Positions 1,360-58,860 of a stretch of 64,000 nucleotides of DNA are shown in pieces. The stretch lies in NCBI GenBank assembly GCA_024683775.1, contig GCA_024683775.1_4106.1; one strand, written 5' to 3'. The notes under the pieces are model-generated. The model was not told where the DNA came from, did not search any database, and saw only the letters and a program-made list of their open reading frames with translations. A program made the translations under genes and the position numbers. Every line of letters starts with the position of its first letter. Within the stretch, counting starts at the first letter, position 1. This DNA is from a phage.

Positions 1360-2454
1360 ATGAATTTTATTATTCTGTTGATTCCTTCACTTATCGTTGT
1401 ATTTGTTATGAAATACATGTATGATAAGCACATCAGTACTAAAGAACTGTTGATTCATATTGGTTGTTGTATAGTTGGTGCTGCTCTTGTGCTTGGTATC
1501 TCATATGCAATCAACTACAGTCAATTGTACGATGTAGAGATTCTAAATGGGCAGGTAACATCCAAATATAATCACAAGGAGTTTTGTACACAATCAAGCT
1601 CATGTAAGCATTACACGTGGCACGAGAAATGCAGAACTCGTTATGATAGTAAGGGGAAATCCCATCGTGAATGTGAGTCCTATAAGGTATTTGATTATAC
1701 ATACGAAGTTGACTGGTATGTAAAAAGTACTGTAGGGAAGTTTGAGATTGAGCGAGTAAACCGTCAGGGTACAATGACCCCTCCACGCTGGCAACAGGTT
1801 AACATTGGGGATTATGCTGCCGCAGAAAGTTCTTATATTAACTATCTGTTCGCTGATAAAAACTCATTGTTCAGTCCTGATGAATTACATGAAATGTATG
1901 ATGAGAAATATCTTAGTACTTTACCAGAATACCCAAGTGTGGTAGACTATTATAAAACACACCATGTAATCAACACTACTAATTATAATGTAGATGGTTA
2001 TGATGAGTATCTGCGTGAAGAACTAAAAACTATGGGTGCACGTAAACAAGTCAACATCCAAGTTTTGGTTTATGATTATAAAAACGTAGATTTTGTTGAG
2101 GCAACACTCGCTTCGTGGCGTGGTGGTAAGAAGAATGATGTTATTATGTTCTTTGGAATTGATAATGATGGGAAGATTGTTAAATTTGATAGCACTTCCT
2201 TTGCACAAGGCATGAAGAACGAAGAACTACATGCTAAGATGCGAATGGATGCATTAAATGAAAAATTAACTCTTGACTTGTTGAGCAAAGAAGTGCATAA
2301 TATTGACACAAAGTTTGAAAGACTCTCTAATAAAGAGTTCGAGTACTTGTCTGTAAAAATGGAACCACGTAAAGATGTTCTCATCGGTGCTTCTATTTTA
2401 TTACTGATTGTATCTATTTTCATTGGCCTTTATATGAGGGATAACAAGTTATGA
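1360..2454 (+). CDS. hypothetical membrane protein (N- and C-terminal hydrophobic segments, Cys-rich ectodomain)
   Basis: 364 aa ORF, tightly coupled to neighbours. Confidence 0.6.
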   Translation: MNFIILLIPSLIVVFVMKYMYDKHISTKELLIHIGCCIVGAALVLGISYAINYSQLYDVEILNGQVTSKYNHKEFCTQSSSCKHYTWHEKCRTRYDSKGKSHRECESYKVFDYTYEVDWYVKSTVGKFEIERVNRQGTMTPPRWQQVNIGDYAAAESSYINYLFADKNSLFSPDELHEMYDEKYLSTLPEYPSVVDYYKTHHVINTTNYNVDGYDEYLREELKTMGARKQVNIQVLVYDYKNVDFVEATLASWRGGKKNDVIMFFGIDNDGKIVKFDSTSFAQGMKNEELHAKMRMDALNEKLTLDLLSKEVHNIDTKFERLSNKEFEYLSVKMEPRKDVLIGASILLLIVSIFIGLYMRDNKL

Positions 2455-3005
2455 ATGGTAAAATTATTGCATTGATTGGTGTTGTTGTTGTATTCGGTCT
2501 TATGGCAATTGGTTCAGTTAGTATGTATGTAGATGCACATGACCGTGCTGTTGAATTTGAAGGTAATATTAAAAAGTACTATGATGCATCAGAAAGTCAA
2601 CTAAGTAAATACACTCTTGTCATTCAAGAAAAAGTACAAGTTTCTGATAAGTATAAGGATGCATTGAAAGAAACCATCGAAACATACTTTAAAGGTCGTG
2701 AAGGTGTTGACCAGAAGTTTGTGATGTCACAGATTCAACAACAGGTTCCTAATCTCGATCCTAAGATTTATCAAGAACTTATGGTAACTATCGAGTCAGG
2801 ACGTACACAGTTCAACAATCTTCAGAAAATGAAAATTGACCAGTGTACTGATTATGCTAAGTTCCGTAAAGGTTTCTGGAACTCCAAAATTCTTGATACT
2901 AACACATTCCCAAGTGAAAATATTGAACATTTATGTACAGTAGTTTCTGATACACGCACTAAGAAAGCAATGGATACTGGTATCCAAGAAGTAATTAAAC
3001 TATAA
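2451..3005 (+). CDS. hypothetical membrane-anchored protein (single N-terminal TM)
   Basis: 184 aa; start overlaps upstream stop (ATGA). Confidence 0.6.
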   Translation: MNGKIIALIGVVVVFGLMAIGSVSMYVDAHDRAVEFEGNIKKYYDASESQLSKYTLVIQEKVQVSDKYKDALKETIETYFKGREGVDQKFVMSQIQQQVPNLDPKIYQELMVTIESGRTQFNNLQKMKIDQCTDYAKFRKGFWNSKILDTNTFPSENIEHLCTVVSDTRTKKAMDTGIQEVIKL

Positions 3006-3052
3006 TCTAAATTTGGGAGTACATTGTACTCCCATTTTCTATAGGATTTATT

Positions 3053-3640
3053 ATGTTTTTAAAAAATACTTATGAATTAATTAAAATGCTTCAAAATATG
3101 AATTCCGGTGGTCTATTCCCGTATCACTCTGAGGATAAAACTCATCGTTTAGTTTTGAAATTGGATGAAACTGGGCGTATTGCATCACTAAGAACGGCTG
3201 TTCCAAATATAGATCAAGTAATTATGCCAACAACTCCGAATTCAGGAACTGCTGTTAATACACCACAAACATATAACTCAAACTACCAACACCCACAGAT
3301 GTATACGATTAGTACTCCATCTATTACAAGAGTTGCTTGTATTGTTAATATAAAAGTATCAAAAGACTATCGTGATTTAATATCAGTTGAATGGTCAGAA
3401 CTAACATCAGCATTTGCAAACAATGGGCTTGTTGTAACAAATGCTGGTATAGCAGTCAATGCAAAAGAAGGACAACAGATAATGAGTGCGTTGTATCTTA
3501 GCAATGGTTATGTTATCATTAATGGGAAGTTGTATTGTAACACCGAACCAGAAGCACTCACTGAAGATTTGATTAGTGAAAAAGAATATAGTCTTCTTGA
3601 AATTATGAATTTAAAAAAGGTATATGAAAACTGTGATTAG
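3053..3640 (+). CDS. hypothetical protein
   Basis: 195 aa ORF. Confidence 0.55.
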   Translation: MFLKNTYELIKMLQNMNSGGLFPYHSEDKTHRLVLKLDETGRIASLRTAVPNIDQVIMPTTPNSGTAVNTPQTYNSNYQHPQMYTISTPSITRVACIVNIKVSKDYRDLISVEWSELTSAFANNGLVVTNAGIAVNAKEGQQIMSALYLSNGYVIINGKLYCNTEPEALTEDLISEKEYSLLEIMNLKKVYENCD

Positions 3641-8298: not shown

Positions 8299-8709
8299 AT
8301 GAGTTTAGATTTACACAATGAACTAAAATATTATTTCGATTTGGATATATCACATTTGAACCAACACGTCAATTATATGACTAGTACTATGTGGTGGTCT
8401 GATGAGTTTGATGAACCAAAAATCCAACTTTGTGGTGATTTGTCTGTTTTGAGGTTGTATGCCCTTGATTCGGAAATGAATATCAAGATCACATACATCC
8501 CATACACAAACAAACTTATTGTAAACACCCTAAACCCAGTTACCGTATTGAAAATTTCTGATTTGGACACGATACAGTCAGATGAATCACTATTCCAACG
8601 TTCTTTGATTGATGATATGGGTGGTATTTTATATGAAGATATTGTACAATTGAAGAAGATGTATAGTGAATTGTTAGAAATTAAAAACACAGTAATTGTG
8701 GGGAGTTGA
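8299..8709 (+). CDS. FQxS-signature family protein
   Basis: 136 aa; motif DESLFQRSLIDD. Confidence 0.6.
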   Translation: MSLDLHNELKYYFDLDISHLNQHVNYMTSTMWWSDEFDEPKIQLCGDLSVLRLYALDSEMNIKITYIPYTNKLIVNTLNPVTVLKISDLDTIQSDESLFQRSLIDDMGGILYEDIVQLKKMYSELLEIKNTVIVGS

Positions 8710-9115
8710 TATGGTAAGTTTACTTGATATTGATAATACCAGTCTAGTACTGGTAAAAAAAGGTGTAATTCCCAATTCTACAAAAATTGATTATGCAGTT
8801 ATTGAAACAAATATTGGAAATATCTGGTATGACTCCGAAAGGGATATTGTGATTAGCTGCGTAGACAGTGACCGTGCTGAGTGTTGTAGGGTTGGTCATG
8901 ACGGGCAATTTATTTTCGAATTCCGTTACTGGAAAGATGCTAAATTCCATCATGAGCATGTTTCAATTACAGGTGTGTATTGCACCGAAGAATCGTTCTT
9001 CATGGATAGTACTGTTAATGATTTTGGTTCAGTTACATTTGAGTACTATAAAAAAGTATACAACGTATCCAGAGAAGTAATGCGAATCATCAGAAATGCT
9101 GAGGGTCAAGATTAA
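8696..9115 (+). CDS. FQxS-signature family protein (FMDS variant)
   Basis: 139 aa; motif EESFFMDSTVND. Confidence 0.55.
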   Translation: MWGVDMVSLLDIDNTSLVLVKKGVIPNSTKIDYAVIETNIGNIWYDSERDIVISCVDSDRAECCRVGHDGQFIFEFRYWKDAKFHHEHVSITGVYCTEESFFMDSTVNDFGSVTFEYYKKVYNVSREVMRIIRNAEGQD

Positions 9116-9491
9116 CATGACTACTATATATGACATTTTAGGTGACTTGAATAAAAATATAGATAATGATTTTGTTATTGTTCAAGATACTAGAAATTTA
9201 TTTCAACTACCAATAGGTTCACCAGATAGGTTAATTTTTAATAGATACGCAAAAACACTGACATACCTACACGATGGTATGGTTATATTGGTACTTGATA
9301 TTAAAGAAAATACAATACGATATGCATATGACTTCAAAGATTATTGGTCAAGAACCCATAGTATTGATATTGAGGAAGAGGAACTATTCCAATTGTCATT
9401 GATTGAGGAAAATGTAATAGGAATTACAGAAATTGATATTGTTAAAAAAGCATTAGACTATACAAATATAAAAATTAATGGTGAGCTATGA
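9096..9491 (+). CDS. FQxS-signature family protein
   Basis: 131 aa; motif EEELFQLSLIEE. Confidence 0.6.
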   Translation: MLRVKINMTTIYDILGDLNKNIDNDFVIVQDTRNLFQLPIGSPDRLIFNRYAKTLTYLHDGMVILVLDIKENTIRYAYDFKDYWSRTHSIDIEEEELFQLSLIEENVIGITEIDIVKKALDYTNIKINGEL

Positions 9492-9943
9492 TGGAAATTG
9501 ATGAAATAAAAAATCATTTTGAAATTGCATTGTCTTGTAAATTTGATGGCTCTTATGTTCCTGATCCAGAAGAGATAATTAGAATTTCCACATCGTTTTC
9601 GGAAGAGTACAATGTTCTTATTGAGAAAACATATGACAGTACGGAACTCGCATTTTACAATAAGAATTCACGAACAACAACATTTATATTATTATATAAC
9701 ACAACATCGGATTTAATAGAAATTATAACATGTAAAACAATCAAAGATGTACATTATGAGACTATATCAAATGTGAGTTATTGTTCAACTGAAGAAGGAT
9801 ACTTTCAGGAATCTCTTGTTAAAAATTTAACAGTTAGTTATTCTGATTTAAGCACTATAATCAATTGTGTTGAAAAGCTAAATGATTTCGTTCTATCTAT
9901 GTTTGATATCACAGAGCAAAACCCGAAGGTAATCAAATGCTAA
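9488..9943 (+). CDS. FQxS-signature family protein
   Basis: 151 aa; motif EEGYFQESLVKN. Confidence 0.6.
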   Translation: MMEIDEIKNHFEIALSCKFDGSYVPDPEEIIRISTSFSEEYNVLIEKTYDSTELAFYNKNSRTTTFILLYNTTSDLIEIITCKTIKDVHYETISNVSYCSTEEGYFQESLVKNLTVSYSDLSTIINCVEKLNDFVLSMFDITEQNPKVIKC

Positions 9944-10392
9944 ATCCAGGACAGTTTTTCCATTTACTTAGTATTACACCTATACCGGATTTAATCAGTG
10001 AAGCGAATCAATATCGTGATATAGGAATTGTATCTATGGAATACGATTCACCTGACTTTAAATGTTACGTAACATATGATTTGGTAGCCTATGAGTCAGA
10101 AACTGAGATAAAAAAACCATCATACATTTTTGTGTTCATATATAATGATTATAGTGGTGATCTACTCAATGATGTTCATATTGACACATTTGAAATATGT
10201 GATAATATTATAACAGATGATTCATCATGTACATTTGATTTATCAGAAAACAGTACTGAAGAGGCACTTTTTCAGTTGAGTACTGTTAGTGACACTGTAC
10301 TAACTCTTGATGACATTGAGAAATTTAAAGAACAGCTTGACGCAGTACGTGAGATGTTCTATAATCATTATCCAGAAATCGAGTTCAAATAA
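9937..10392 (+). CDS. FQxS-signature family protein
   Basis: 151 aa; motif EEALFQLSTVSD. Confidence 0.6.
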   Translation: MLNPGQFFHLLSITPIPDLISEANQYRDIGIVSMEYDSPDFKCYVTYDLVAYESETEIKKPSYIFVFIYNDYSGDLLNDVHIDTFEICDNIITDDSSCTFDLSENSTEEALFQLSTVSDTVLTLDDIEKFKEQLDAVREMFYNHYPEIEFK

Positions 10393-10997: not shown

Positions 10998-11049
10998 ATA
11001 AGATGCTATAATGTATTATAGTACCTTAACAATATAAAAAGGATTTTAT

Positions 11050-11910
11050 ATGAAACCTATCAGAGTACTGTCACTTTTTAATGGAATGAGCGTTGGATAT
11101 ATGGCATTGGCAGATGCAGGTATTCCAGTTGAAAAATATTACTCATCTGAAATTGACAAGTACGCAATTGCTGAATCTTCCGAGAATTTTCCTGATATTA
11201 TCCAGTTAGGTGATGTGACTAAGTGGAAAGAATGGGATATTGAGTGGGATAAGATAGATTTACTCATGGGAGGATTCCCATGTCAAGCCTGGTCTGTTGC
11301 TGGTAAGCAAGGTGGCTTGAATGATATACGTGGACAGTTATTTTTGGTTATGGTTGATATTTTTGAGCACATCAAAAGTGTAAATCCAAACTTGCAATTT
11401 CTGTTCGAGAATGTTAAAATGAAGGAAGATTTCAAAGAATACATTAATAGTATTTTAGGAATCACACCAGTACTGATAAATTCCCAGCATTATACGCCTC
11501 ACTTCAGGCAGAGATACTACTGGTGCAGTACTGATAAGCTTTTTATACCACCTGCATTATCAAATGCCCCTAAACTTCAAGATATCATTGAAGATGGTTG
11601 GTATACTGACAGAACCGCTTCGTACTGTATAGATGCTAACTATTTTAAGGGTGGTGATTGTAACCAGTACTTTAATAAATCAAGACGACAGTTGGTGTTT
11701 CGTGACCCAACGATTAATCGTCAATATCTATTGGAGAATGGTAAAAGAAATATTGACTATAGACACTTAAGTGTAGTAGAATGTTGTAAATTACAGGGTA
11801 TTCCTGTAGATTTCTTTAAAGTGTCTAGTAAGACACAAGCATACAAAATGCTTGGGAATGGATGGACTATGCCAGTTATATCACACTTACTAAGAGAGAT
11901 ATTCTTTTGA
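11050..11910 (+). CDS. DNA (cytosine-5)-methyltransferase, apparently orphan
   Basis: 286 aa; m5C motifs LFNGMSVGYMAL (I), GGFPCQAWS (IV), ENV (VI), GNGWTMPV (X); no restriction endonuclease partner recognised nearby. Confidence 0.85.
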   Translation: MKPIRVLSLFNGMSVGYMALADAGIPVEKYYSSEIDKYAIAESSENFPDIIQLGDVTKWKEWDIEWDKIDLLMGGFPCQAWSVAGKQGGLNDIRGQLFLVMVDIFEHIKSVNPNLQFLFENVKMKEDFKEYINSILGITPVLINSQHYTPHFRQRYYWCSTDKLFIPPALSNAPKLQDIIEDGWYTDRTASYCIDANYFKGGDCNQYFNKSRRQLVFRDPTINRQYLLENGKRNIDYRHLSVVECCKLQGIPVDFFKVSSKTQAYKMLGNGWTMPVISHLLREIFF

Positions 11911-12397: not shown

Positions 12398-12421
12398 GAT
12401 CCACGCTATGCGTGGATTTTT
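12398..12421 (+). terminator. rho-independent terminator
   Basis: atccacgc-tat-gcgtggat perfect 8-bp stem followed by TTTTT. Confidence 0.55.
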
Positions 12422-12434
12422 CATAGGTGCATAT

Positions 12435-12950
12435 ATGACAGTTCCTTATGTTAAAATTATTAATAATATCCTTGATTCGTGGGAAGATGTTATTACTGGT
12501 AAAAAGAACCCAATGCCAGTACACGCACTAACCGGAAGACTACAATTCAGAACGTCAAACAAAACTGAAACTTTTAATAATCATGATGTTCACATTACTA
12601 TAAAATCACCTGTACGTATTGTAATTAAAAAAAATCAAGATGATGAATTGACATTATCTATTGGTAGTGATAAAATCATTTTGAGTAATTTATCCGAAGA
12701 AGAATTCTTTCAACGTAGTACTATCATCGATATGAAAGATTTCACATATGAATCATTGGTTGAACTCAATACACGTTTCAACGATATTCAGGAACGATTG
12801 CGACCAATCCTCGGTAAAGAAGAGGAAGCCTGGAATGAAAGTGTGAGAAAGATGCAAGAAATGTTGAAAGAAAATATTAACAATCTGGGTAAAGCTACAA
12901 TGGAATTTGGTAAATCTTTTAAACTGAACTTTTCAAAGGATCGTAAATGA
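12435..12950 (+). CDS. FQxS-signature family protein
   Basis: start set at the ATG after the terminator hairpin (SD aggtg); motif EEEFFQRSTIID. Confidence 0.55.
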   Translation: MTVPYVKIINNILDSWEDVITGKKNPMPVHALTGRLQFRTSNKTETFNNHDVHITIKSPVRIVIKKNQDDELTLSIGSDKIILSNLSEEEFFQRSTIIDMKDFTYESLVELNTRFNDIQERLRPILGKEEEAWNESVRKMQEMLKENINNLGKATMEFGKSFKLNFSKDRK

Positions 12951-13402
12951 AAATTGATAATTTGATTCATGTCTTAGGGACTTTACATAAAATATTATCT
13001 CATGTAGATGAGATAAAGAAACTGGGACTTAACATCTCAAATTCAATTGAAACTACATTTAAATATCAATCAATTACTGGTGATGGTTATTACATAATCG
13101 AATATACTTATGAAACCGATCCAGACTTCTATCCTCTTACGTTGAGAATTTATCCAACAAATCCGAGAGGAATTCACGACATATCATCAATTTCACTTGA
13201 TCCAGATGGTGAAACGAGTATTGAATACAATAATGATTCAAAACCAGAATTTTACATTGATGATATTAAAAAGTTGTTCAATGATGAATATGTTTTCCAA
13301 CAAAGTACTGTGCATGATGTTGGTAGTACTACTGGGCAATTTTGGAATACATGTTATTATCATATGATTGAAATTTGTAAATTACTAAAAGGTGTTGAAT
13401 AA
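12947..13402 (+). CDS. FQxS-signature family protein
   Basis: 151 aa; motif DEYVFQQSTVHD. Confidence 0.6.
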   Translation: MKIDNLIHVLGTLHKILSHVDEIKKLGLNISNSIETTFKYQSITGDGYYIIEYTYETDPDFYPLTLRIYPTNPRGIHDISSISLDPDGETSIEYNNDSKPEFYIDDIKKLFNDEYVFQQSTVHDVGSTTGQFWNTCYYHMIEICKLLKGVE

Positions 13403-13785
13403 TGAAATACTGCATTGAAGTACATTACACTACAGGTGATACTGAAAATTGTTATGACGTTCTTAATACAATTGATATTCAATGGTCTTCTAAAGAGGAA
13501 GCAGTTGCTGCTTTACAGTGCCTAAAAGAGCATTGGGTGTTTTATATGAAGCAAGATAATTGCTATACAAAAGAACACGAAACGATCATGGAAAATGCTA
13601 AACAAAAAGAGTGGTTTGACCCAATATCACCAGAATATTCATTCTTAGTTAAAGTTGGTGATGTGACAGTTCCATTACGAACACCGTGGAACGGCTACTT
13701 TGAAACTCTTCATAATGCACGAGTTGTCGCTGTTGATAACCCTGAACAAATCGATTTCGATTCATTGGACTGGAAAAAACTATGA
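13402..13785 (+). CDS. hypothetical protein
   Basis: 127 aa ORF. Confidence 0.55.
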   Translation: MKYCIEVHYTTGDTENCYDVLNTIDIQWSSKEEAVAALQCLKEHWVFYMKQDNCYTKEHETIMENAKQKEWFDPISPEYSFLVKVGDVTVPLRTPWNGYFETLHNARVVAVDNPEQIDFDSLDWKKL

Positions 13786-14225
13786 CAGTACTGCACCGAT
13801 TGAAGAAGGTTAAGCATCCAGTTGTATATGAGGACTGGAAACGACAGAAGTTGCTGGGTGATTTTTATTACCCAAAATCTAAAGTTCTTGCGAATTCAAG
13901 ATGTACATATTGCACACATAATGATAAAGATACAGTATTTGTCGAAATGGGTTTCCATCCATCAAACACAATGTTCACTACTAACCAAACGTTTTACAAA
14001 TTTCATATACAAAAAGATTCATTTACTGTTATGATTATAAAACATTTAGTTGAAGATCTGGCATTCAGTGAAGAACGAGTACCTTTATCATTAGTGGATA
14101 TTCCTTATAATAATTTAGAGGAAATGTACTTCCAACAGTTGACAGTACAAGAAAACTTTGGTATGATAGGACTTCAAGAGTTAGAGATGATTAAGCAAAT
14201 TCGTGATATCTACTTTAAGGAGTAA
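13782..14225 (+). CDS. FQxS-signature family protein
   Basis: 147 aa; motif EEMYFQQLTVQE. Confidence 0.6.
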   Translation: MTVLHRLKKVKHPVVYEDWKRQKLLGDFYYPKSKVLANSRCTYCTHNDKDTVFVEMGFHPSNTMFTTNQTFYKFHIQKDSFTVMIIKHLVEDLAFSEERVPLSLVDIPYNNLEEMYFQQLTVQENFGMIGLQELEMIKQIRDIYFKE

Positions 14226-21622: not shown

Positions 21623-21737
<115 letters not shown>

Positions 21738-21741
21738 AAAA

Positions 21742-21828
<87 letters not shown>

Positions 21829-21845
21829 CAATTAAAGGTTAAACC

Positions 21846-22006
<161 letters not shown>

Positions 22007-22010
<4 letters not shown>

Positions 22011-22167
22011 CACATGAAGAATGGATGAATGACATTAATTTTAGATATTCGGGTATCGGTAAATGGCTAAAGTATCATTGGGAATTCATTTCAGAGCCAC
22101 ATCTGTATGATAAACTTATCAACGATCCAGCATATGAAATGTACTTAATTGAACTACTGGTACGAAT

Positions 22168-22171
<4 letters not shown>
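22007..22171 (+). CDS. MTHEEWM mini-protein, copy 2 (54 aa)
   Basis: ATGA-coupled; MTHEEWMNDINFRYSGIGKWLKYHWEFISEPHLYDKLINDPAYEMYLIELLVRI. Confidence 0.45.
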
Positions 22172-22763
<592 letters not shown>

Positions 22764-22767
<4 letters not shown>

Positions 22768-22792
22768 CTAAATAGTTCAGTACTGATATAAT
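22764..22792 (+). promoter_or_regulatory. class-B promoter TTGACT-aaatagttcagtactga-TATAAT
   Basis: TTGACT 22764-22769, TATAAT 22787-22792. Confidence 0.55.
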
Positions 22793-22867
22793 GAATTCCA
22801 CAATCAGACGTATATGGTGTAAGTTACGTCGATGTAATCCAGAACAAGATCTCTGGTACTCTAGGAA

Positions 22868-23077
22868 GTGGTGAATGTTAACCTAGACGGGTTTGATAAT
22901 TGGACGATAGGCAATTATTACTTGACTAGCAGGTTTAAACTAGAGGTGACAGTCCTTTACCAAACTGGAAAACCGGATGGACTTTTATTTAAAAGGGTAA
23001 GGCGTGGAAATATGTTTACAGTAGTTGCTTTTAGTAGCCTGTACGCCCCACGTAAAGGTAGCCGAAAGGCAAGTTAA
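22868..23077 (+). CDS. uncertain: 69-aa ORF or part of a structured non-coding transcript
   Basis: lies between a class-B promoter and a T-run at about 23125-23133; locally more GC-rich; weak SD. Confidence 0.3.
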   Translation: MVNVNLDGFDNWTIGNYYLTSRFKLEVTVLYQTGKPDGLLFKRVRRGNMFTVVAFSSLYAPRKGSRKAS

Positions 23078-23155
23078 AACGGGTGGTTATAAAGCTGAAT
23101 TAACAGCGGCGTTTAAAAGCGTCACCATCCATTTTTTTTAATTAAAGTTGGTGAT

Positions 23156-23533
<378 letters not shown>

Positions 23534-23544
23534 GATTAAGTACT

Positions 23545-24109
<565 letters not shown>

Positions 24110-24127
24110 ATCAGTACTTTATTATGA

Positions 24128-24258
<131 letters not shown>

Positions 24259-24261
24259 AAT

Positions 24262-24351
24262 CGGTCCCGTTGCCTAGCGTCCGAAGGCAGCCGACTCATA
24301 ATCGGTCACAGTTAATGACACACCACTGGTTAGAATCCAGTCGGGACCACC
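24262..24351 (+). tRNA. tRNA, anticodon CAT (Met or lysidine-Ile), unusually long variable region
   Basis: acceptor ggtcccg/cgggacc, anticodon arm gccga-ctCATaa-tcggt, T-arm actgg-TTAGAAT-ccagt, CCA. Confidence 0.5.
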
Positions 24352-24354
24352 AAT

Positions 24355-24428
24355 TAGACTCTGTAGTTCAGTTGGTAGAACGCTTCACTCATAATGAAGA
24401 AGTCGCTGGTTCAATCCCAGTACTGACC
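24355..24428 (+). tRNA. tRNA-like, anticodon CAT; acceptor stem does not pair (possible pseudo-tRNA)
   Basis: canonical D-arm ta-gttc-agttggta-gaac, anticodon arm cttca-ctCATaa-tgaag, T-arm gctgg-TTCAATC-ccagt; 5' gactctg versus 3' actgacc are non-complementary. Confidence 0.35.
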
Positions 24429-24438
24429 ACAAAAAAAA

Positions 24439-26136
<1,698 letters not shown>

Positions 26137-26254
26137 AATATTCTCCTGAATTTTCTAAAAGTTATAATAATATTTAGTTACAATATTTATGATATAGATT
26201 AAAAAGTTGAAATGTGTTCAAAAAATGTGGTATAATACCTCTGTTGTTCACGGA

Positions 26255-26484
<230 letters not shown>

Positions 26485-26493
26485 TCAAAATTC

Positions 26494-26575
<82 letters not shown>

Positions 26576-26584
26576 TAAAACAAA

Positions 26585-26668
26585 TGGTAGTTAGCATATC
26601 GGCCTTATGCAACGGACTGTTAATCCGTGTCAGAAATGACAAGACTGGTTCGACTCCAGTACTACCAG
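26585..26668 (+). tRNA. tRNA-Asn (anticodon GTT), extended variable region
   Basis: acceptor tggtagt/actacca, D-arm gcat...atgc, anticodon arm acgga-ctGTTaa-tccgt, T-arm actgg-TTCGACT-ccagt. Confidence 0.55.
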
Positions 26669-26733
26669 CAAAACAATCATGAACCTCGGAACAATAAATA
26701 ATATCATACAGGATATTATGAGGTCTAAGGTTC

Positions 26734-27276
26734 ATGGGACGAAAACAATCAGAAGAAACACGTAAAAAAATAGCTGAATCATTAAAGGCTAAAAGTTCTA
26801 AATTACCAGAGAATGAAATAATTCAAAAATATTTAAATGGTATGCCAATTTACGGTTTAGCCAAAGAATATAAGTGTAATAGATCAAGAATAAATGATAT
26901 CGTTGAATCACATGGTGTTAAACGACCAAAATCAACCAATGAAATGCGATTTTGTGAAATACACAATAAGAATTATGAATTAAATTCACAAGGTAAATGG
27001 AAATGTTTAAAATGTGACAGTCAACGTGTTTCTGATAGACGTAGAAAATTAAAAATACTAGCCGTTGAATACAAAGGCGGTTGTTGTGAAAAGTGTGGAT
27101 ATGATAAATGCATTGCCGCATTAGAATTCCATCATGTTGATCCTTCACAGAAAGATTATTCAATTAGTCAAGAAGGTGCAACTCGTTCTTTTGAAAAAAT
27201 TAAAATAGAACTGGATAAATGTATTATGGTTTGTGCAAATTGTCATCGTGAGATTCATGATGATGAACGACAATAA
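26734..27276 (+). CDS. HNH homing endonuclease with NUMOD3-like N-terminus
   Basis: 180 aa; KQSEETRKKIAESL; CEKCGY...HHVDP...CANCHREIH zinc-finger HNH. Confidence 0.8.
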   Translation: MGRKQSEETRKKIAESLKAKSSKLPENEIIQKYLNGMPIYGLAKEYKCNRSRINDIVESHGVKRPKSTNEMRFCEIHNKNYELNSQGKWKCLKCDSQRVSDRRRKLKILAVEYKGGCCEKCGYDKCIAALEFHHVDPSQKDYSISQEGATRSFEKIKIELDKCIMVCANCHREIHDDERQ

Positions 27277-27279
27277 TTT

Positions 27280-27549
<270 letters not shown>

Positions 27550-27557
27550 GAATTTAA

Positions 27558-27959
27558 ATGAAAAAGAATGACTTGATCAAAATGCTTCAAGAGATTGACG
27601 GCAATCCAGAGATTGTTATTTGGAATGGATATGTCGATGATTATATGAACATCGAAAAAGGCTTGACTAAAATCACTCTAGTCAAAGAAACTGAACAGTT
27701 CCTTCTGGAAGCATTAGTGCACGAATGGTGCAAACGTAACAATACATTCGACATTCCAGAAGATCAACGAACTAAGATTGCAGAACAAGCTAAAAAACTT
27801 CATAAGAAACGTGAATACGATTTCCAGAACCCACATGTTACTGAAGACGAATTCAATCACTGGTACGGTAAAAAGAAATTGACAAAATATGTCATTTCAC
27901 CTAAACTACGTGGTAAGACTTCACTTGGTGTCTTCAACGCCGCTGACTTAAACTACTAG
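27558..27959 (+). CDS. hypothetical protein
   Basis: 133 aa ORF. Confidence 0.55.
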   Translation: MKKNDLIKMLQEIDGNPEIVIWNGYVDDYMNIEKGLTKITLVKETEQFLLEALVHEWCKRNNTFDIPEDQRTKIAEQAKKLHKKREYDFQNPHVTEDEFNHWYGKKKLTKYVISPKLRGKTSLGVFNAADLNY

Positions 27960-27968
27960 CGGGTATTA

Positions 27969-28236
<268 letters not shown>

Positions 28237-28281
28237 GATTCCCGATTCAGTAGCTTATAAAGCAGTTCCGTGTGTGCCTAT

Positions 28282-28334
<53 letters not shown>

Positions 28335-28335
28335 T

Positions 28336-28373
<38 letters not shown>

Positions 28374-28392
28374 AGAGGTACTTCGAGTATGC

Positions 28393-28501
<109 letters not shown>

Positions 28502-28520
28502 AAATCTTAGTAAGAAAATA

Positions 28521-28602
<82 letters not shown>

Positions 28603-28681
28603 GAAGAAACTGCTAAACAGCTTGAAGTACTTTGTAGTGCTGCACCTATGCCGACACTTGGCTTAATCAAGTTGATGCGTA

Positions 28682-28723
<42 letters not shown>

Positions 28724-28774
28724 GCCTCCCCTCAATGCGAAAGAGTATAGAGACTTGTTGGTTATCTTACTTCT

Positions 28775-28852
<78 letters not shown>

Positions 28853-28870
28853 ACAAAATAAAGGTACACT

Positions 28871-40145: not shown

Positions 40146-41111
40146 GTGAAAAAGCTTGATTTAAATGCAATTTCTGAAGAAGTACTGGATGAGTGTTTTG
40201 CTAGTGAAGAAGTCAACGTATTAGAGGCTCTTGATTCCGTCGAAGAAGAAGAACATGACGGTCACAAGTTTGAGAAACCAAAAACAGGTATCAGCTTAAC
40301 TCGCCCTAAAGGGATAACGAATGAAATGCTCATCCAAGCAGTGCGTGATGGTATTGACGTTGAAAAGAACATTGACCTTTTGGTTCGCTACAACTATCCA
40401 ATGGTAGTAAGTGTTGCACGTAAGTGTACATGTTTTATCCCATTTGAAGATAAGATTTCTTATGGTGTTGAAGGTTTAATGCGAGCAATTCATACGTTCG
40501 ACACTACCAAAAATGTTAAGTTCATTACATATGCAACAACAACTGTGTACATGACAATCTATAACGAAAGTGCAGATGCTAATTATCTAGTGCATTTCCC
40601 ACGTTATATGAGTGTTAATAACATTTATGTGAAACGTTGTGTAGAAGAGTATCAAAGGAAACATGGTAAATACCCAACTCCTGAGATGGTGTCAAAAGAG
40701 ACTGGTATTGAGATTCAACACGTTAAGAATTGTCTAACTTACAGTAACACTTATGTAGCATTGAATATGAAAATGAGTAATGATTCAGAAAGTACATTAT
40801 CTGACATTGTTACTTCAGTTGAACCTGATTACAACTTAGGCGTAGAAACTGTCAGTACCCCACTGGTACAAAGTATTGCAGAAATGATGAGTAACCTATC
40901 TGCCAAAGACCGTGAATTGATTGAACGTGTACATGGTATTGGTTCTTATTCTGAACCCGAAACGCTACGAGAAATCATTGAGAGTGGTTTTGAAGATGAG
41001 AAGGGTAAGGTCATGACTGCTCGTTCTTCATTGCACCGTAAGTACTCTGAAGCAATGGAACGACTGCGTAAGATGGTTAAGACAAAAGGTTATGAGTTCG
41101 AAGATTTTTAA
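40146..41111 (+). CDS. sigma-70 family RNA polymerase sigma factor (phage-encoded)
   Basis: 321 aa, GTG start with SD aggag; region-2-like NYPMVVSVARK...GVEGLMRAIHTFD...KFITYATTTVYMTI; region-4-like HTH ...LREIIESGFEDEKGKVMTARSSLHRKYSEAMERLRK. Confidence 0.7.
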   Translation: MKKLDLNAISEEVLDECFASEEVNVLEALDSVEEEEHDGHKFEKPKTGISLTRPKGITNEMLIQAVRDGIDVEKNIDLLVRYNYPMVVSVARKCTCFIPFEDKISYGVEGLMRAIHTFDTTKNVKFITYATTTVYMTIYNESADANYLVHFPRYMSVNNIYVKRCVEEYQRKHGKYPTPEMVSKETGIEIQHVKNCLTYSNTYVALNMKMSNDSESTLSDIVTSVEPDYNLGVETVSTPLVQSIAEMMSNLSAKDRELIERVHGIGSYSEPETLREIIESGFEDEKGKVMTARSSLHRKYSEAMERLRKMVKTKGYEFEDF

Positions 41112-43507: not shown

Positions 43508-43535
43508 TTGACATAAGATATCAGTACTGTATAAT
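43508..43535 (+). promoter_or_regulatory. class-B promoter TTGACA...cagtactg-TATAAT
   Basis: TTGACA 43508-43513, TATAAT 43530-43535. Confidence 0.5.
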
Positions 43536-47253: not shown

Positions 47254-47486
47254 TATTGAGTTTTGTAGTTGCATTATTGTTTATGTTCTACCCTACACTA
47301 GTAGCAGTAGCCACTAAACGAAAGCTGGTGGATATCACTACTGTATTCTTGCTAAACGTGGCACTCGTTCTAGTGTCTATTATCATTCCCGTGAGCTTTA
47401 CGGTTATTGATATGGCATCTGTATTACTATTCGTCTTCAGTTATCTTATGCTTATTGAAGAAAAACCTGTTGACAAACGTTTGTAG
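47244..47486 (+). CDS. hypothetical small membrane protein
   Basis: 80 aa, two TM helices. Confidence 0.5.
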   Translation: MYLVLSFVVALLFMFYPTLVAVATKRKLVDITTVFLLNVALVLVSIIIPVSFTVIDMASVLLFVFSYLMLIEEKPVDKRL

Positions 47487-47497
47487 TACTGTATAAT
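47470..47497 (+). promoter_or_regulatory. class-B promoter TTGACA...gtagtactg-TATAAT
   Basis: TTGACA 47470-47475, TATAAT 47492-47497. Confidence 0.5.
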
Positions 47498-58831: not shown

Positions 58832-58833
58832 GT

Positions 58834-58860
58834 TGACAAACTCATTCAGTACTGTATAAT
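58834..58860 (+). promoter_or_regulatory. class-B promoter TTGACA...ttcagtactg-TATAAT
   Basis: TTGACA 58834-58839, TATAAT 58855-58860. Confidence 0.5.

Follow-up and report, generated by a model that had tools for sequence, protein, structure and literature searches.

A probable stand-alone DNA cytosine-5 methyltransferase with a short recognition domain in an Asteriusvirus jumbo coliphage

Introduction

What does a jumbo coliphage gain from a cytosine-5 methyltransferase gene that stands alone, and which sequence might the enzyme modify? The question arises from a 64,000-nucleotide stretch of phage DNA (GCA_024683775.1, contig GCA_024683775.1_4106.1; hereafter the window), whose source is an Asteriusvirus jumbo coliphage of the 121Q/PBECO4 type. 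The gene itself is already known, and its recognition in the window is correct but ordinary. More than 40 GenBank phage records carry its annotation and several genome papers name it as a presumed protective methylase, so the discovery value is small; in the fEgEco12 and WPEC5 records, the identical protein is labelled DNA (cytosine) methyltransferase. We consider it probable that the gene encodes an active, stand-alone, S-adenosylmethionine-dependent DNA cytosine-5 methyltransferase, whose activity, target and role we infer from the comparisons below.

Results

A conserved and probably active methyltransferase

The gene opens with ATG, closes with TGA (counted within its coordinates) and encodes 286 amino acids (Table 1). 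In the 52-nt gap upstream, we found no good -35 element to accompany the possible extended -10 element TGCTATAAT, and the upstream region holds no more promoter-like sites than shuffled sequence does. As judged by profile comparison, the predicted family membership is far beyond chance: the protein matches PF00145 (E 4.7e-37, 128.6 bits against a Pfam cut-off of 22), TIGR00675 (dcm; E 1.2e-33, 117.2 bits against a curated cut-off of 100.65) and phrog_116 of PHROGs (E 1.2e-58). Motifs I, IV, VI, VIII, IX and X follow one another in the canonical, non-permuted order, and their key residues are invariant in an alignment of 55 homologues at 48–96% identity. The original prediction that all core m5C motifs are present is thereby confirmed, with one amendment: motif I, described as FxGxxG-like, is indeed there, but it takes the form FxGxxxG, as in DNMT3. 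By analogy with the structures of M.HhaI and CmoX, E34 of motif II would serve the cofactor ribose.

Table 1. Features of the methyltransferase locus, in window coordinates.
Feature	Coordinates	Strand	Conservation or basis
CDS, DNA cytosine-5 methyltransferase	11050..11910	+	
Putative extended -10 element TGCTATAAT, within the 52-nt upstream gap	11004..11012	+	consensus match only
Ribosome-binding site AAGGA, 6 nt 5' of ATG	11039..11043	+	sequence
Motif I LSLFNGMSVG (FxGxxxG), predicted S-adenosylmethionine binding loop	11068..11097	+	S8, L9, F10, G12 invariant
Motif II SSEID, E34 the putative acidic residue for the cofactor ribose	11143..11157	+	E34, D36 invariant
Motif IV GGFPCQAWS, predicted catalytic nucleophile Cys78 (11281-11283)	11269..11295	+	G75, P77, C78 invariant
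Motif VI FLFENV, Glu predicted to protonate cytosine N3	11398..11415	+	E120, N121, V122 invariant
Motif VIII RQRYYW (RxR)	11506..11523	+	R153, R155, Y157, W158 invariant
Short target-recognition domain (TRD), 78 aa	11524..11757	+	alignments
Motif IX YRHLSVVECCKLQGIP	11758..11805	+	R238, L240, E244 invariant
Motif X YKMLGNGWTMPV, includes LGNGWTMPV	11842..11877	+	G269, N270, G271 invariant

The target-recognition domain is built around the conserved core DRxxSYCIDANYFKGGxxxQYFNKSRRQ. Within the 55-sequence alignment, its residues Y198, K200 and R212 are invariant; conservation is 90% or higher at D187, R188, K190, S191, C193, D195, A196, N197, G201, G202, Y207, K210, R213 and Q214. An insertion of about 45 amino acids that phi92-like and ICP1 homologues carry in this domain is absent from the protein in these alignments. 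AlphaFold gives a confident model (pLDDT 94) with two domains, a Rossmann-type catalytic domain and a small recognition domain. The gene appears to be under purifying selection, with a dN/dS of 0.11 against UE-S1 and 0.09 against CBB, and on this value of about 0.1 we rejected a pseudogene reading. Family, modelled fold, invariant catalytic residues and purifying selection together point to, and support, an active DNA cytosine-5 methyltransferase.

Full-length orthologues with 100% amino acid identity occur in fEgEco12, WPEC5, WPEC3, Ecwhy_1, BF17, EC.P1 and vB_Ec-M-J, and those of 121Q (gp91), PBECO4, phAPEC6 and G17 are 95–96% identical over their full length; most Asteriusvirus records fall between 95 and 100%, with a few divergent ones at 76–92%. 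Every Rak2-like jumbo-phage genus has an orthologue. Identity is 74–77% for the Mimasvirus pair CBB (CBB_399) and GAP32, for Erwinia phages and for XbC2, and 63% for RaK2 (gp194) and K64-1, and in Asteriusvirus, CBB/GAP32 and RaK2 alike the gene is set among small early-type genes. In substance, the gene in the window is no different from these annotated phage genes. The RaK2 orthologue differs in having PCT instead of PCQ, plus an 8-aa insertion after motif IV. In five relatives (UE-S1 and four others), an intein lies directly before the catalytic Cys; inteins typically occupy essential active-site positions.

Relation to characterised methyltransferases

The nearest solved relatives are the catalytic domains of DNMT3A/B (PDB 6U8P, 6KDA and 4U7T), to which the phage catalytic domain is closest. 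Whereas DNMT3A/B add PWWP and ADD domains, the 286-aa phage protein is a catalytic domain only, with PCQ in motif IV, where DNMT3 has PCN, and Asn in motif X, where DNMT3 has Arg. Similarity to M.HhaI (GCGC) and M.HaeIII (GGCC) is essentially confined to the N-terminal 120–200 residues. Compared with these two enzymes, the recognition domain is shorter, and the segment with the canonical T-L loop, kept by homologues with the insertion of about 45 amino acids, is missing from it; an HhaI-type target would be pointless because GCGC is absent from the window, as are about twenty 6-bp palindromes. The label 'HaeIII' is a best-hit name rather than a tested specificity. The multispecific enzymes of the Bacillus phages SPR, phi3T and SPbeta are about 440–500 aa long and carry several tandem target-recognising modules in a long region, in contrast to the 78-aa region here; by tblastn, the protein matches SPR over residues 1–157 only and SPbeta-type phages over shorter N-terminal stretches. 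As phage orphan C5 methyltransferases with short motifs, we also compared M.CviPI, S-B43 CmoX (PDB 8YF3) and the GpC-specific phage enzymes that occur with TET (PMC8256090). In size, the protein ranks among the smallest C5 methyltransferases found in nature and represents a minimal form of the family.

Orphan status and the nature of the reaction

Unlike classical type II m5C enzymes, the methyltransferase has no recognisable endonuclease partner in the window or beside its homologues in 75 of 80 bacterial loci, which supports its description as an orphan. Scans of the 10 flanking ORFs (Pfam, PHROGs and PADLOC) and of 10 of the window's longest ORFs (Pfam) detected no nuclease or restriction family. 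We fetched 80 bacterial loci and identified the homologue ORF in 75; no recurrent restriction enzyme lay beside it in these, and the recurrent neighbours were SSB, helicases and N6-methyltransferases, the make-up of prophage replication modules. The claim that no recognisable restriction partner lies nearby thus holds for both sets. With no recurrent endonuclease among the fetched loci, we also set aside the idea of reading the specificity from a neighbouring restriction enzyme with a known site. The methyltransferase could still supply the modification activity of a restriction-modification or toxin-like pair whose nuclease sits among the adjacent unannotated small ORFs, given that none of the 10 flanking ORFs has an assigned function and that type II endonucleases are well known for escaping recognition by sequence. 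We regard this as highly improbable, however: those ORFs form part of arrays of small phage-specific PHROG families in which PADLOC finds no defence-system protein, the neighbourhood differs between genera (window/WPEC5, CBB and RaK2) while the methyltransferase is conserved, and across the bacterial loci only replication proteins and other methyltransferases co-occur with the homologues. It is also extremely unlikely that the enzyme does something other than methylate DNA. It might transfer a non-methyl group in the manner of CmoX, starting a hypermodification, and carboxymethyl-transferring phage homologues of C5 methyltransferases do exist, with Arg at the position of HhaI N304 (PMC12783734). 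CmoX is characterised by this carboxyl-binding Arg in place of the motif X Asn and by a co-encoded Cx-SAM synthase, CmoA, whereas here Asn270 is canonical and invariant, on which ground we rejected a CmoX-like enzyme; a methyl rather than a carboxymethyl donor is what Asn270, the counterpart of M.HhaI Asn304, would predict. Nor were CmoA, CmoY, TET or glycosyltransferase families found in the 20 ORFs scanned (flanking and longest in the window), and the DNA of fEgEco12 is cut normally by nine enzymes. A DNMT2-like enzyme acting on cytosine-38 of phage tRNAs would fit a window that encodes seven tRNAs, but similarity to DNMT2 reaches E 6.5e-10 at best and covers the N-terminal half only, as against E 1e-23 over the full length for DNMT3. 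The CFT motif of the recognition domain, which defines DNMT2, is absent from the sequence, and we rejected the DNMT2-like form on its absence.

Target specificity

Comparing the recognition domain with characterised enzymes, as had been suggested for finding the target, did yield relatives, but none close enough in that domain for a specificity to be transferred. Sequence and fold searches against the PDB gave only DNMT3 (CG), M.MpeI (CG), HhaI (GCGC), HaeIII (GGCC) and CmoX (GC), and the names returned by a search of 5.8 billion proteins were generic or best-hit labels, such as 'HpaII' and 'HaeIII'. The window shows no depletion of GGCC, ACGT or TGCA; a target read from C-containing palindromes that are not avoided was discarded, as the pattern is inconsistent across CBB and RaK2 and is confounded by host differences. 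Our search of the published literature found no methylome data for Asteriusvirus phages. Two reports bear on the question. The RaK2 paper reports, as data not shown, methylated CpG by bisulfite analysis and resistance of the DNA to methylation-sensitive enzymes (PMC3622015). For fEgEco12, the supplementary digests cover EcoRI, NsiI, SpeI, SexAI, PshAI, ClaI, AflIII, NruI and HindIII, and the authors state that all digests matched the in silico patterns (PMC13070987). These digests argue against blanket CpG, GpC, AGCT or CCWGG methylation. HindIII, NsiI and NruI are informative about GpC methylation by virtue of their sensitivities, and ClaI and NruI are blocked by CpG methylation. Because the first three cut fEgEco12 DNA as predicted, GpC-wide methylation is unlikely. 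As to the CpG specificity known from DNMT3, the two experimental hints disagree: RaK2 is said to carry m5CpG, whereas ClaI and NruI cut the DNA of fEgEco12. A narrower target site is most likely, possibly one that contains CpG, as reported for the RaK2 orthologue.

Two rival proposals for the target were weighed. The first, that the enzyme resembles DNMT3, M.SssI or M.MpeI in methylating CpG generally, at every CG in the phage genome, is unlikely, even though CpG is the target of all three of its best structural neighbours (DNMT3B, DNMT3A and M.MpeI), the invariant Lys200 aligns in HMMER with K777 of the DNMT3B recognition loop, and methylated CpG is reported for RaK2, whose orthologue is 63% identical. 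The window is also depleted of CpG (observed/expected 0.77) with TpG/CpA in excess (1.26), but this combination is common in AT-rich genomes and recurs in ICP1 and PHB05. Against general CpG methylation, fEgEco12, whose enzyme is 100% identical, gave the predicted ClaI (ATCGAT) and NruI (TCGCGA) patterns, and the window still avoids palindromes that contain CpG (CGCG 0.46, CCGG 0.56 and GCGC 0), which would be unnecessary if the sites were protected. E. coli K-12 restricts CpG-methylated DNA through McrA, McrBC and Mrr, yet a K-12 strain, MG1655, was the isolation host of Asteriusviruses such as Sharanji and slurp01. The other proposal is that the enzyme methylates the cytosine of AGTACT (or GTAC), the motif being a genome-wide epigenetic mark rather than a protected restriction site; the original prediction went only as far as saying that the target may relate to these sites or to another motif. 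The enrichment is real and strong at the DNA level: where composition predicts about 22 AGTACT sites, the window has 171, and synonymous-codon shuffles give 34 ± 5 where 151 are observed (z = 22.8); the excess spans all three reading frames, AGTACT encodes 71 of the 129 Ser-Thr dipeptides, GTAC occurs once per 130 bp, and in Rak2-like genomes the motif is 8–10-fold above expectation. Each of the three Rak2-like genera sampled (the window, CBB and RaK2) has both the excess and a short-TRD orthologue, and the published digests used neither ScaI nor RsaI. This co-occurrence is confined to one clade, however, and therefore amounts to one evolutionary event only. In three small, unrelated phages, short-TRD homologues share the recognition core at about 50% identity, yet neither AGTACT nor GTAC is in excess (1, 4 and 1 sites against 6.4, 3.8 and 4.5 expected). 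No link between the enrichment and the methyltransferase emerged. AGTACT is missing altogether from the phi92-like phage PHB05 and ICP1 has no excess either, a weak comparison because both enzymes carry the 45-aa TRD insertion. The RaK2 paper, the sole report on an orthologue, names CpG, and AGTACT does not contain CpG. Finally, GTA(m5C) is an R-m5C site and hence a McrBC target, and the density of GTAC would turn the genome into a dense McrBC substrate in K-12 hosts, on which this phage group plates. We therefore hold methylation of AGTACT or GTAC to be very unlikely. The still bolder idea that a minimal-TRD, DNMT3-like enzyme shared by all Rak2-like jumbo phages writes m5C on these sites so that motif and enzyme form a genome-wide epigenetic 'self' mark, not a simple anti-restriction patch, has a very small chance of being right; if true, the mark would serve packaging or transcription, or would set phage DNA apart from that of the host.

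Discussion

Our preferred explanation remains a stand-alone DNA cytosine-5 methyltransferase that would act on newly replicated phage DNA during infection. In the proposed mechanism, the cytosine would be flipped out and attacked at C6 by Cys78, and its C5 would receive the methyl group from S-adenosylmethionine. As the enzyme is proposed to act on newly replicated DNA, a short target sequence in progeny genomes would bear 5-methylcytosine, making these genomes resistant to host restriction enzymes whose sites contain the methylated target. Such an anti-restriction role is plausible and is the standard inference; the genome papers on phAPEC6, CBB, UE-S1 and Sharanji draw it as well, from annotation alone. 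Heavy avoidance of sites by the phage suggests that methylation may contribute little to its defence against restriction, and the enzyme may instead serve regulation or act on host DNA. A tblastn search of the window with CBB gp365 found no Arn-like anti-McrBC gene.

Once mapped, the target would help to foresee from which restriction systems these jumbo phages, candidates for therapy, are safe, and it would show whether their DNA becomes a substrate for methylation-dependent defences such as McrBC or methylation-sensing retrons. With its small size and with DNMT3A/B as its closest solved relatives, the enzyme could, once its specificity is mapped, also provide a convenient minimal model or tool enzyme.

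An intact and conserved cytosine-5 methyltransferase gene

Its matches place the window in an Asteriusvirus, a jumbo coliphage of the 121Q/PBECO4 type (350–385 kb) within the Rak2-like group: the 5-kb stretch around the gene matches 37 phage records, the closest being Escherichia phage WPEC5 (99.2% identity), followed by fEgEco12, Turkey3 and Ecwhy_1 (~98%) and then 121Q, G17 and Sharanji (~91%). The window is AT-rich (~35% G+C), with almost all of its genes on the + strand. It also encodes a sigma factor carrying both the Sigma70 region 2 and the Sigma70 region 3 domain, whose annotated counterpart is RaK2 ORF244, and seven clustered tRNA genes, three of them tRNA-Met.

The original prediction of a cytosine-5 methyltransferase with all core m5C motifs is supported: its ORF coordinates were exact, and the whole ten-motif set is present, although motif I has the FxGxxxG spacing of DNMT3 rather than the FxGxxG first described. 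The motif residues are invariant in an alignment with 54 homologues (48–96% identity), and the protein matches PF00145 (E 4.7e-37), phrog_116 (E 1.2e-58), TIGR00675 above its curated cut-off and the PADLOC models 'Type II methyltransferase' and 'orphan methyltransferase'. Promoter-like sites are not enriched in the region upstream of the gene.

Features of the methyltransferase gene and of the surrounding window (window coordinates unless stated)
Feature	Position	Strand	Detail
Methyltransferase ORF	11050-11910	+	286 codons, ATG to TGA
Ribosome-binding site	6 nt 5' of ATG	+	AAGGA
Candidate promoter element	52-nt intergenic gap 5' of gene		TGCTATAAT; consensus match only
Motif I			LSLFNGMSVG
Motif II			E34
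Motif IV			GGFPCQAWS (contains Cys78)
Motif VI			FLFENV
Motif VIII			RQRYYW
Motif IX			YRHLSVVECCKLQGIP
Motif X			LGNGWTMPV
Small-ORF arrays	8696-10392, 12408-14225; also 22684, 29187, 29563
tRNA gene cluster	21649-28854
tRNA-Ser (anticodon ACT)	24164-24255		ARAGORN
Sigma factor	40146-41111
AGTACT, examples	464, 921, 10279, 11063, 11526, 22358, 43523
AGTACT-spacer promoters	22343-22370, 22764-22792, 24125-24153, 43508-43535, 47470-47497, 58833-58860	+
Intein-bearing UE-S1 gene	1501-3381 of the UE-S1 segment compared

The gene is under purifying selection, with a dN/dS of 0.11 when compared with its UE-S1 orthologue and 0.09 with that of Pectobacterium phage CBB, and every Rak2-like genus sampled retains it. 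Identity is 95–100% in most Asteriusvirus records and 76–92% in a few divergent ones, 74–77% in CBB, GAP32, two Erwinia phages and Xanthomonas XbC2, and 63% in RaK2, K64-1 and Muenster. The structure that AlphaFold2 predicts from the alignment has high confidence (pLDDT 94.4, pTM 0.91). In five related phages (UE-S1, ph0011, TH47, JNE01 and A4) the gene carries an in-frame 340-aa intein with Hint and LAGLIDADG homing-endonuclease domains (Pfam), placed directly in front of the catalytic cysteine (GGFP / CFPAGT...VVHN / CQAWS), which thus serves as the +1 extein residue.

The absence of a restriction partner, likewise remarked on at the outset, held in the 20 ORFs scanned. The ten flanking ORFs matched no significant Pfam family, their PHROGs were all of 'unknown function', and PADLOC recognised none as a defence protein. 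Ten of the window's longest ORFs contained no restriction enzyme either; what they yielded was an exoribonuclease-like domain, the sigma factor and an AAA ATPase. Neighbours differ among WPEC5, CBB and RaK2. Across 185,579 reference genomes, 541 loci with relatives were retrieved, and in the 75 of the best 80 where the homologue ORF could be located, nothing recurred within 3 kb except SSB, helicases and N6/N4 methyltransferases, a gene content typical of prophage replication modules. Because only such genes recur, the family as a whole appears to be phage-borne and solitary, although the small ORFs could in principle hide a nuclease of unrecognisable type. Arrays of small ORFs (130–180 aa) flank the gene, and their C-termini have in common the motif E-E-x-x-F-Q-x-S-T-[VI]-x-D (as in LFQLSTVSD, FFQRSTIID, VFQQSTVHD and YFQTSTVQE); each belongs to a separate 'unknown function' PHROG, and the common motif suggests an expanded paralogous family.

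A compact enzyme with a DNMT3-like catalytic domain

The methyltransferase is unusually compact. Among solved structures, the closest in sequence are human DNMT3B and DNMT3A, whose catalytic domains align with its residues 2–282 (E 1e-23), whereas M.HhaI and M.HaeIII match chiefly over the N-terminal 120–200 residues (E 1e-15 to 1e-17); fold comparison agrees, the first 50 Foldseek matches all being DNMT3 chains. The resemblance is confined to the catalytic domain, and membership of the DNMT3 family is ruled out by the missing PWWP and ADD domains, PCQ in place of PCN and, in motif X, an Asn where DNMT3 has Arg.

Motifs VIII and IX enclose a recognition region of 78 aa, whose core, DRxxSYCIDANYFKGGxxxQYFNKSRRQ, is close to invariant across the family. 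Small phages carry similarly short versions (269–283 aa), whereas in the 50% identical enzymes of phi92-like coliphages (PHB05) and of Vibrio phage ICP1 this core is followed by an additional insertion of ~45 aa, and other homologues have longer and different insertions.

Some phage C5-methyltransferase homologues, termed CmoX, transfer a carboxymethyl group; what determines this is a motif X Arg where HhaI has Asn304, along with a phage CmoA (PMC12783734). The window enzyme has Asn270 at that position, invariant in the family, and no CmoA, CmoY, TET or glycosyltransferase family was found among the 20 window ORFs scanned; CmoX-like transfer was rejected on these grounds, which support ordinary methyl transfer from SAM as the predicted activity.

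Constraints on the target sequence

Published digests narrow the target. ClaI and NruI are blocked by m5CpG, HindIII by AAG(m5C)TT, NruI also by TCG(m5C)GA and SexAI by Dcm-type methylation. The fEgEco12 protein is 100% identical to the window enzyme. Its authors report that every restriction digest matched the in-silico band pattern, with EcoRI, NsiI, SpeI, SexAI, PshAI, ClaI, AflIII, NruI and HindIII in the supplementary set (PMC13070987). Given these sensitivities, blanket CpG, GpC, AGCT or CCWGG methylation is unlikely. In addition, E. coli K-12 MG1655 was the isolation host of Sharanji and slurp01, and K-12 has McrA, McrBC and Mrr, so dense R-m5C or m5CpG methylation would be costly unless countered; a homologue of the CBB protein annotated 'anti-restriction nuclease' was not found in the window.

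RaK2 may be different. Its paper states, as data not shown, that the DNA was cut by methylation-insensitive enzymes only and that bisulfite sequencing gave a 'methylated CmpG at nucleotide position 5'-' (PMC3622015). RaK2 gp194, the 63% identical orthologue, has PCT and an 8-aa insertion in its catalytic loop. CpG palindromes are avoided in the window (CGCG 0.46 and CCGG 0.56 of Markov expectation; 11 versus 23.7 and 17 versus 30.4) but not in 75 kb of RaK2 (1.04 and 0.85; 27 versus 26 and 29 versus 34), a contrast that agrees with both the RaK2 claim and the working CpG-sensitive digests of fEgEco12. It fits wider CpG protection in RaK2 than in Asteriusvirus, although different hosts could equally explain it, and hints that specificity may differ between the orthologues. 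For the window enzyme, the target is most likely a specific site of at least four bases, possibly with a CpG, that does not overlap the sites of the enzymes tested.

AGTACT excess and palindrome avoidance

AGTACT is selected at the DNA level. The window holds 171 copies against 21.9 expected from base composition; within 144 + strand ORFs there are 151 against 34 ± 5 in 300 synonymous-codon shuffles (z = 22.8), spread over all three reading frames (71 encode Ser-Thr, 50 xVL and 30 xYx), and 20 more lie outside called ORFs. Of the 129 Ser-Thr dipeptides, 71 are written as AGTACT where codon usage predicts 17.8, and CAGTACTG, the extended form of the palindrome, is present in 41 copies (0.7 expected). 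This 8–10-fold excess is common to the window, CBB (130 versus 13.6 in 40 kb) and RaK2 (244 versus 25.5 in 75 kb). None of the papers searched mentions the motif for these phages.

The suggestion that the methyltransferase targets these AGTACT/GTAC sites thus began from a real enrichment, but the link to the enzyme is unsupported and we consider it very improbable. No ScaI or RsaI digest has been published for these phages, which leaves the idea some room. Against it, the excess and the enzyme co-occur within one clade and so represent a single evolutionary event, and the excess is absent from ICP1, from three small phages with homologues lacking the ~45-aa insertion and from PHB05, which has zero copies. 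Moreover, AGTACT contains no CpG, and GTA(m5C) would be a McrBC target.

Six near-consensus sigma70-type promoters carry the palindrome in their spacer, adjoining an extended −10 (TTGACa-N9-CAGTACTG(a)TATAAT); in three of the six the spacer is identical (TAAATAGTTCAGTACTG). One tRNA-Ser in the tRNA cluster has an unusual anticodon, ACT, and would read AGT; this first half of AGTACT is, with TCA, the most used serine codon in the window (31% versus 30%).

GCGC is missing altogether from the window (where a Markov model predicts 26 copies, base composition 57 and codon shuffles 28 ± 5), from 40 kb of CBB and from 75 kb of RaK2; the compared phages that do not belong to the Rak2-like clade have it at a normal frequency. 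Also wholly missing from the window are some twenty G/C-rich 6-bp palindromes, including CTGCAG, CCATGG, GGATCC, CAGCTG, GCATGC, GGTACC, CTCGAG, GTCGAC, GAGCTC and GACGTC; CACGTG and GTGCAC occur as often as expected, and GATC is at 0.43 of expectation. The pattern indicates strong and selective restriction-site avoidance.

Overall, the cytosine-5 methyltransferase finding is correct but already known, because most of the 54 phage records with a close homologue are annotated 'DNA methyltransferase', 'DNA cytosine methyltransferase', 'Dcm' or 'modification methylase HaeIII', and the phAPEC6, CBB, UE-S1, Sharanji and RaK2 (PMC3622015) papers mention a presumed protective methylase; cytosine methylases are also recorded for these groups in a comparative study of jumbo phages (PMC7824862). 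The gene is less unusual than some of the observations made alongside it, in particular the surplus of AGTACT, the complete lack of GCGC and the intein that relatives carry at the catalytic cysteine.
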